Source of the DNA: Vicugna vicugna | Lineage: Eukaryota | Direction: 5' to 3' | Assembly: GCA_013265495.1 (NCBI GenBank) | Contig: MU057711.1 | Location: 682,001 to 746,000, forward strand | Length of the DNA stretch: 64,000 bases | Part shown: one piece after another, positions 20,036-20,209 of the stretch | Numbering within the stretch: the first letter of the stretch is position 1 | Layout of the letters: each line of letters begins with the position of its first letter | Made by a program: the position numbers and the translations under genes | The notes under the pieces: generated by a model | Told to the model about the DNA's origin: nothing | The model's input: only the letters and a program-made list of their open reading frames with translations | Database searches by the model: none

Positions 20036-20209
20036 TCATAGACTACAGTCTCCCAGCTGCGCTCCTGTGCGCCCTGGTGAGCTGGGACTCCCGCCTCCAC
20101 TCGATCCCCATCCTCCTTGGCTCAGAGAAGAACTGGCTGATGCCAACAGGGCTGCAAACATGGACCCAGGCTTCTTCTGCAGGACCTCAGGCCTGTCAAA
20201 CTCCACCAC
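20036..20209 (-). CDS. ABCC11: ABCC11 last exon, coding part (57 aa plus TGA)
   Basis: [36 protein letters not shown] followed by [27 protein letters not shown]. Confidence 0.9.

Follow-up and report, generated by a model that had tools for sequence, protein, structure and literature searches.

A short stretch of the former 3′ UTR of ABCC11 appears to have been incorporated into the coding sequence in South American camelids, where the predicted protein carries a C-terminal tail of 27 residues. ABCC11 is an apocrine-gland transporter, and its gene is tied to apocrine secretion. As far as can be judged from the sequence, the tail represents, with a probability of about 0.7, a tolerated, near-neutral incorporation of UTR sequence at the labile end of an intact gene, and it is probably harmless. 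On the features tested, the predicted tail is a C-terminal extension by stop loss. It resembles the cases compiled by Andreatta et al. in 2015 (54 in yeast and 28 in flies), in which a short noncoding segment joined the C-terminus of an old protein via the loss of its stop codon (PMC4494051). Those cases are polymorphic, whereas the ABCC11 tail belongs to a mammalian gene, is probably old, and seems to have been shortened again in the sister genus.

Structure of the ABCC11 Gene and Its Predicted Tail

The window, i.e., the whole stretch of 64,000 nucleotides of Vicugna vicugna DNA analysed here, harbors the coding region of ABCC11 on the minus strand (20036–61847; all features of the gene given below are on this strand). 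Its 24 exons correspond to residues 254–1405 of the alpaca protein; the 5′ exons are outside the window or unmapped, and the statements made here on the window cover residues 254–1405. The spliced exons comprise 1152 codons with no internal stops, and 23/23 introns are of the GT–AG type. The best matches are ABCC11 proteins over the full length, and, with the frame, splice sites, and both nucleotide-binding domains (NBDs) intact, the predicted gene is an ortholog of ABCC11 (MRP8). Pseudogenisation was rejected for residues 254–1405, since both the frame and the splice sites are intact.

The penultimate exon (20336–20500) encodes a part of NBD2, and its motifs are presumably the Walker B, D-loop, and H-loop of this domain. 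It is followed by the last intron (20210–20335; 126 nt, GT–AG, in frame and stop-free) and by the last exon, the conserved part of which (20120–20209, with an AG acceptor ahead of 20209) spans 30 codons and ends in SSSLS. Codon 31, the position of the ancestral stop, reads CAA (Gln; 20119–20117) and codon 32 reads GGA (Gly; 20114–20116). The frame then stays open up to a TGA at 20038–20036, 26 codons after the CAA, so that the predicted tail (20039–20119) terminates in DCSL. Its presence in the window, along with its coordinates and translation, was thereby confirmed as given in the first-pass annotation. The only AATAAA or ATTAAA hexamer within 20035–19600, an AATAAA at 19752–19757, about 280 nt past the new stop, is likely the polyadenylation signal, its use being inferred.

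The 84 nt of the tail and its stop have a GC content of 63%. The tail contains 9 Gly, 6 Ser, 2 Pro, 1 Trp, 1 Cys, and 1 Asp but no Glu, includes two SP sites, and displays a GRAVY value of −0.6. Hence, its description as Gly/Ser-rich is correct, but the claim of richness in Pro was overstated. Judging from this composition, the tail is probably a short, hydrophilic, unstructured cytosolic appendage behind NBD2. Among the best 60 of 61 matches in the PDB, there was no structure of ABCC11, the nearest being ABCC5. A match of the tail to a GGWGSSGG stretch of a dUTPase (E 0.64) was dismissed as low-complexity chance. The CaaX prenylation signal has its Cys fourth from the C-terminal end, whereas the Cys of the tail is third from the end. 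The consensus of class I PDZ ligands is S/T-X-hydrophobic at the C-terminus (PMC4900533), and the final three residues here are C-S-L; as originally noted, DCSL fits neither motif.

The same tail is already annotated in the alpaca. In the RefSeq record of Vicugna pacos (XP_072823419.1, 1405 aa, an automatic annotation), the last exon, including all 27 tail residues, is identical to that of the window. Overall, 1147 of the 1152 residues coincide; the five differences (RefSeq residue first) are C324R, L383F, A712T, A732V, and I818M, at 60827, 60493, 44798, ~44738, and 40526, respectively. At three of the four differing sites that were checked, the window carries the camel residue. By this comparison of predicted proteins, the window and the RefSeq alpaca sequence are distinct alleles or close relatives. 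The identity of alpaca ABCC11 is 95.6–95.9% to its Camelus counterparts and 71.5% to the human protein; the latter figure is close to those of sheep (72.8%), peccary (71.2%), and horse (73.2%), and there is accordingly no visible acceleration of the protein. Among the papers listed for the C-terminus of ABCC11 and for ABCC11 in alpaca and camel, no title or abstract dealt with the tail.

ABCC11 Termini across Mammals

The survey of termini started from the best 120 of 172 matches, which gave, after removal of 10 rows of fish ABCC12 and addition of 5 earlier records, 115 mammalian records; for the genus count, 9 marsupial rows were removed and 23 of 63 new cluster members added, giving 129 records. 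Among the matches listed, 79 placental genera are represented; the protein ends at codon 30 in 53 of them, before it in 7, and beyond it in 19. The genera ending at codon 30 include hippo, peccary, buffalo, sheep, goat, rhinos, dog, and human, pig and cattle being absent from the sample. Human ABCC11 ends in ATATSSLR after exactly 30 codons of the last exon, in agreement with the end from which the first-pass annotation had placed the ancestral stop at codon 31, and the count of genera supports this placement. Since the outgroups stop where the extension begins, the origin of the tail from the former 3′ UTR is supported as well. The possibility that most mammalian orthologs already carry an extension was checked, and only the above 19 of 79 placental genera among the matches listed proved to be longer. 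These 19 include Camelus, Vicugna, two cetaceans, and Carlito, Suncus, and Sturnira, the very long run-on models of which were treated as annotation artefacts; ABCC11 is described as a pseudogene in cetaceans (bioRxiv 2020.11.15.383638).

At the same time, the view that the tail is unusual found no support: ABCC11 tails of 3–24 residues recur across mammals. At least seven separate extensions outside camelids were found among the matches listed, namely in Equus (+24), shrews of the genus Sorex (+21/22), phyllostomid (leaf-nosed) bats (+19), pangolins (+7), manatee (+7), aardvark (+7), and lagomorphs (+3/+8); this count uses the general mammalian phylogeny, and all of the tails are automatic annotations. 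In the other lineages, the tails have other sequences, frames, and final residues, and GRAVY is negative in 12 of 13 other tail records. Those of Equus, phyllostomids, and Sorex are the closest parallels, being hydrophilic, UTR-derived, of similar length, and situated in the same exon of the same gene, but they are of independent origin, with other frames and termini. In total, the terminus deviates from 30 codons in 26 of the 79 placental genera among the matches listed, which indicates that the position of the stop is labile; the 53 genera ending at exactly 30 codons suggest some constraint.

Two versions of the donkey (Equus asinus) record XP_014713007 differ in this region: the tail is +38 in version.2 and +24 in version.3, with a frameshift after the fifth tail residue, which may reflect an assembly indel or polymorphism. 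The +38 donkey tail aligns best with the frame of the window tail (score 33), and the +24 tail of the horse aligns weakly with another frame of the window (27 against 24).

Probable Order of Stop Loss and Stop Gain in Camelids

In Camelus, ABCC11 ends in SLSQ in 5/5 records (C. ferus, C. dromedarius, and C. bactrianus). The occurrence of Gln at codon 31 in all three species means that the old stop was lost camelid-wide and that the difference from camels resides in codon 32 (20116–20114), where the Camelus proteins stop. Thus, the stop loss at the CAA, initially offered as the cause of the tail, is real, but it is insufficient alone. In other clean stop losses, codon 31 encodes K (horse), S (pangolins, narwhal), L (grey whale), E (aardvark), or Y (manatee), all of which are one base away from TAA or TAG. 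The CAA found here is one base from TAA, so the ancestral stop was most likely TAA, as had been proposed. In horse, pangolins, whales, and aardvark, four read-through lineages unrelated to one another, codon 32 encodes Gly, which argues that this residue is ancestral and that the stop of camels is derived.

The most likely history, its order being inferred from proteins, is that camels acquired a new stop and that the tail persisted in the llama line. The ancestral TAA would have changed to CAA on the camelid stem, letting ribosomes run through the GC-rich UTR as far as the following in-frame stop; later, a stop at codon 32 would have arisen in the Camelus line, with the llama/alpaca line retaining the tail. 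A different order is conceivable, in which the camelid ancestor possessed a backup stop at codon 32 and lost its TAA at the price of a single Gln, the backup being lost later by lamines. Given such a backup, the first stop loss would have been almost free, and the lamine sample consists of two sequences; however, this order takes three changes, including a reversion to the ancestral Gly at codon 32, versus two in the preferred one, and we regard it as quite improbable. If true, it would imply that the long tail is young and perhaps polymorphic.

Tail Length and Composition Compared with Chance

When the next 150 nt were subjected to 20,000 dinucleotide shuffles, 35% of these kept the frame open for at least 26 codons, so the length of the tail is as expected by chance. 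The tail was matched or exceeded in hydrophilicity by 82% of the open shuffles; this property hence follows from base composition, and it was rejected as a sign of selection. The content of Gly, Ser, and Pro (17 in sum) was reached in 0.02% of the open shuffles. For the share of the three most frequent residues in the 26 codons after Gln, the corresponding figures were 1.6% among 16,317 open shuffles and 1.5% among 11,164 stretches of the window that are open and GC-matched, and two or more [ST]P sites occurred in 0.5%, all statistics on Gly/Ser and [ST]P being post hoc.

A stop can arise in the tail by 14 single-base routes, and the stop of Camelus occupies the first possible codon. The probability that the frame survives point mutation neutrally over 17 million years was estimated as 0.82–0.89 from assumed substitution rates and dates, with indels ignored; the persistence of the open frame was accordingly rejected as a sign of selection.

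Possible Effects on Sorting and Stability

Lying in the last exon, the tail should not trigger nonsense-mediated decay (NMD), and, with a normal stop and a downstream AATAAA, non-stop decay is not expected either. According to published work, hydrophobic C-terminal readthrough tails are cleared via BAG6 (bioRxiv 2022.07.20.500724), and hydrophobicity is higher in stop-loss variants that are deleterious (PMC12817085). The negative GRAVY of the camelid tail is at odds with this profile, and a hydrophilic tail would escape hydrophobic-tail quality control. In the account of Chu et al., new termini shift the half-life of proteins in either direction: Trp and Cys destabilise, in particular faster degradation is linked to Trp/Cys combined with few acidic residues, whereas a terminal hydrophobic residue alone has no such effect (PMC12976096). 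With one Trp, one Cys, and one Asp in the tail, a modest effect on stability is possible.

There is no support for a likely effect of the tail on sorting. As reported by Toyoda et al., human ABCC11 tagged with EGFP at the C-terminus is apical in MDCKII cells and confers resistance to 5-FU, and in HEK293 cells its level and glycosylation pattern are the same as those of the untagged protein (PMC4900533); this evidence concerns human ABCC11, not the camelid protein. ABCC2, ABCC4, and CFTR, described in the same paper as apical and PDZ-dependent, belong to the same subfamily and share a cytosolic C-terminus located after NBD2. Unlike them, ABCC11 carries the class I consensus neither in human (SSLR) nor here (DCSL), and the human protein stays apical with its terminus masked by EGFP. 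Toyoda et al. likewise describe ABCC11 as devoid of this consensus, the PDZ-like nature of SSLR being their speculation (PMC4900533). Apical sorting and transport would thus probably be unchanged by the tail. On the whole, the initial interpretation was partly supported.

Alternative Explanations

An assembly error at 20116 (or 20119) could in principle create the tail, and the disparate donkey RefSeq versions demonstrate that errors or variants do occur in the equivalent region. This explanation is scarcely credible, since Gln is found at codon 31 in three Camelus species and the same 27 residues are present in two alleles that are otherwise distinct at 5 of 1152 residues; an isolated error is therefore unlikely. 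Programmed stop-codon readthrough was also rejected, because codon 31 is a sense codon and the tails are not conserved between orders. The tail might, on the other hand, be mildly harmful, lowering the stability of ABCC11, persisting under weak selection, and being purged in camels by a selected stop. Here, one can invoke the location of the Camelus stop, one of the 14 single-base routes, at the first possible codon, the destabilising combination of Trp/Cys with few acidic residues (PMC12976096), the dispensability of ABCC11 reported for cetaceans and pygmy hippo (bioRxiv 2020.11.15.383638), and the camelid one-residue deletion ahead of the NBD2 signature. The intact frame and splice sites, the lack of visible acceleration of the protein, and the hydrophilicity of the tail argue against this possibility, which we consider rather doubtful.

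Adoption of the tail in South American camelids, as a Gly/Ser linker carrying two proline-directed phosphosites, together with a new terminus, and tuning the trafficking or turnover of apocrine ABCC11, is unlikely. It would account for the excess of Gly/Ser (~1.5%) and SP sites (0.5%) over the shuffled and empirical backgrounds and for the identity of the tail in two alleles, and Toyoda et al. speculate that the PDZ-like human SSLR might matter (PMC4900533). Nevertheless, these statistics are post hoc, and donkey records reading the homologous UTR in the frame of the window tail also give SGGG..PSSP, so a part of the pattern predates the tail and was inherited from the UTR. Moreover, the terminus occurs in no other mammal among the matches listed, camels do without the tail, and masking of the human terminus by an EGFP tag is harmless (PMC4900533). 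The near-neutral incorporation, given above as the preferred reading, has points against it as well: the post hoc excess of low complexity (1.5–1.6%) and of [ST]P sites (0.5%), the 53 genera with exactly 30 codons, the combination of Trp and Cys with a single acidic residue, and the immediate vicinity of the Camelus stop to the old one, which would be expected were shortening favoured.

Implications and Accompanying Observations

If the tail is neutral, its consequences are small: it is one more UTR-derived tail, already present in RefSeq. As a by-product, the survey of termini portrays the end of ABCC11 as free to drift in mammals, which speaks against a published speculation, namely that the human protein needs SSLR as a PDZ-like sorting signal. 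If selection adopted or purged the tail, the comparison of camel and alpaca would make a clean two-allele test of the evolution of a de novo C-terminus. The most far-reaching scenario, to which we attach little credence, portrays the ABCC11 terminus as a mammalian hotspot of stop turnover, where intact genes were extended independently at least eight times; camels would have purged the tail by selection, and South American camelids would have turned it into a regulatory tail with Gly/Ser and SP sites changing the abundance or sorting of the apocrine transporter. With both outcomes true, the camel/alpaca pair would be a natural experiment on UTR-born C-termini, purged or adopted.

Several other features of the gene and window were recorded. 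If the 126-nt last intron (20210–20335) were retained, the end of NBD2 would gain 42 residues; an insert of 42 residues is present at this site in a polar bear UniRef model, and three other short models are without it. Searching with the unspliced frame across both final exons yielded 22 proteins from 182 candidates; the best of those resembling ABCC11 had 63% identity, and none was from a camelid. Downstream, where the neighbour of ABCC11 is presumably ABCC12 by synteny, tblastn with fish ABCC12 and an N-terminal piece of bat ABCC12 as queries revealed no ABCC12 coding exon at 1–20000 of the window; ABCC12 may be situated beyond it.

Ahead of the NBD2 signature, one residue is deleted (AEVENG versus AEVVENG; 22110–22118, minus strand, in the exon 22148–22038). 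The deletion was found in 5 of 105 matching records, all of them camelid, and shortens what we take to be the X-loop region; its consequences for transport could exceed those of the tail. The Walker A motif of NBD1 (exon 52812–52741, minus strand) reads GKMGSGKS in three camelids versus the consensus GNTGSGKS among 17 aligned orthologs, and it also varies in deer, horse, and rabbit.
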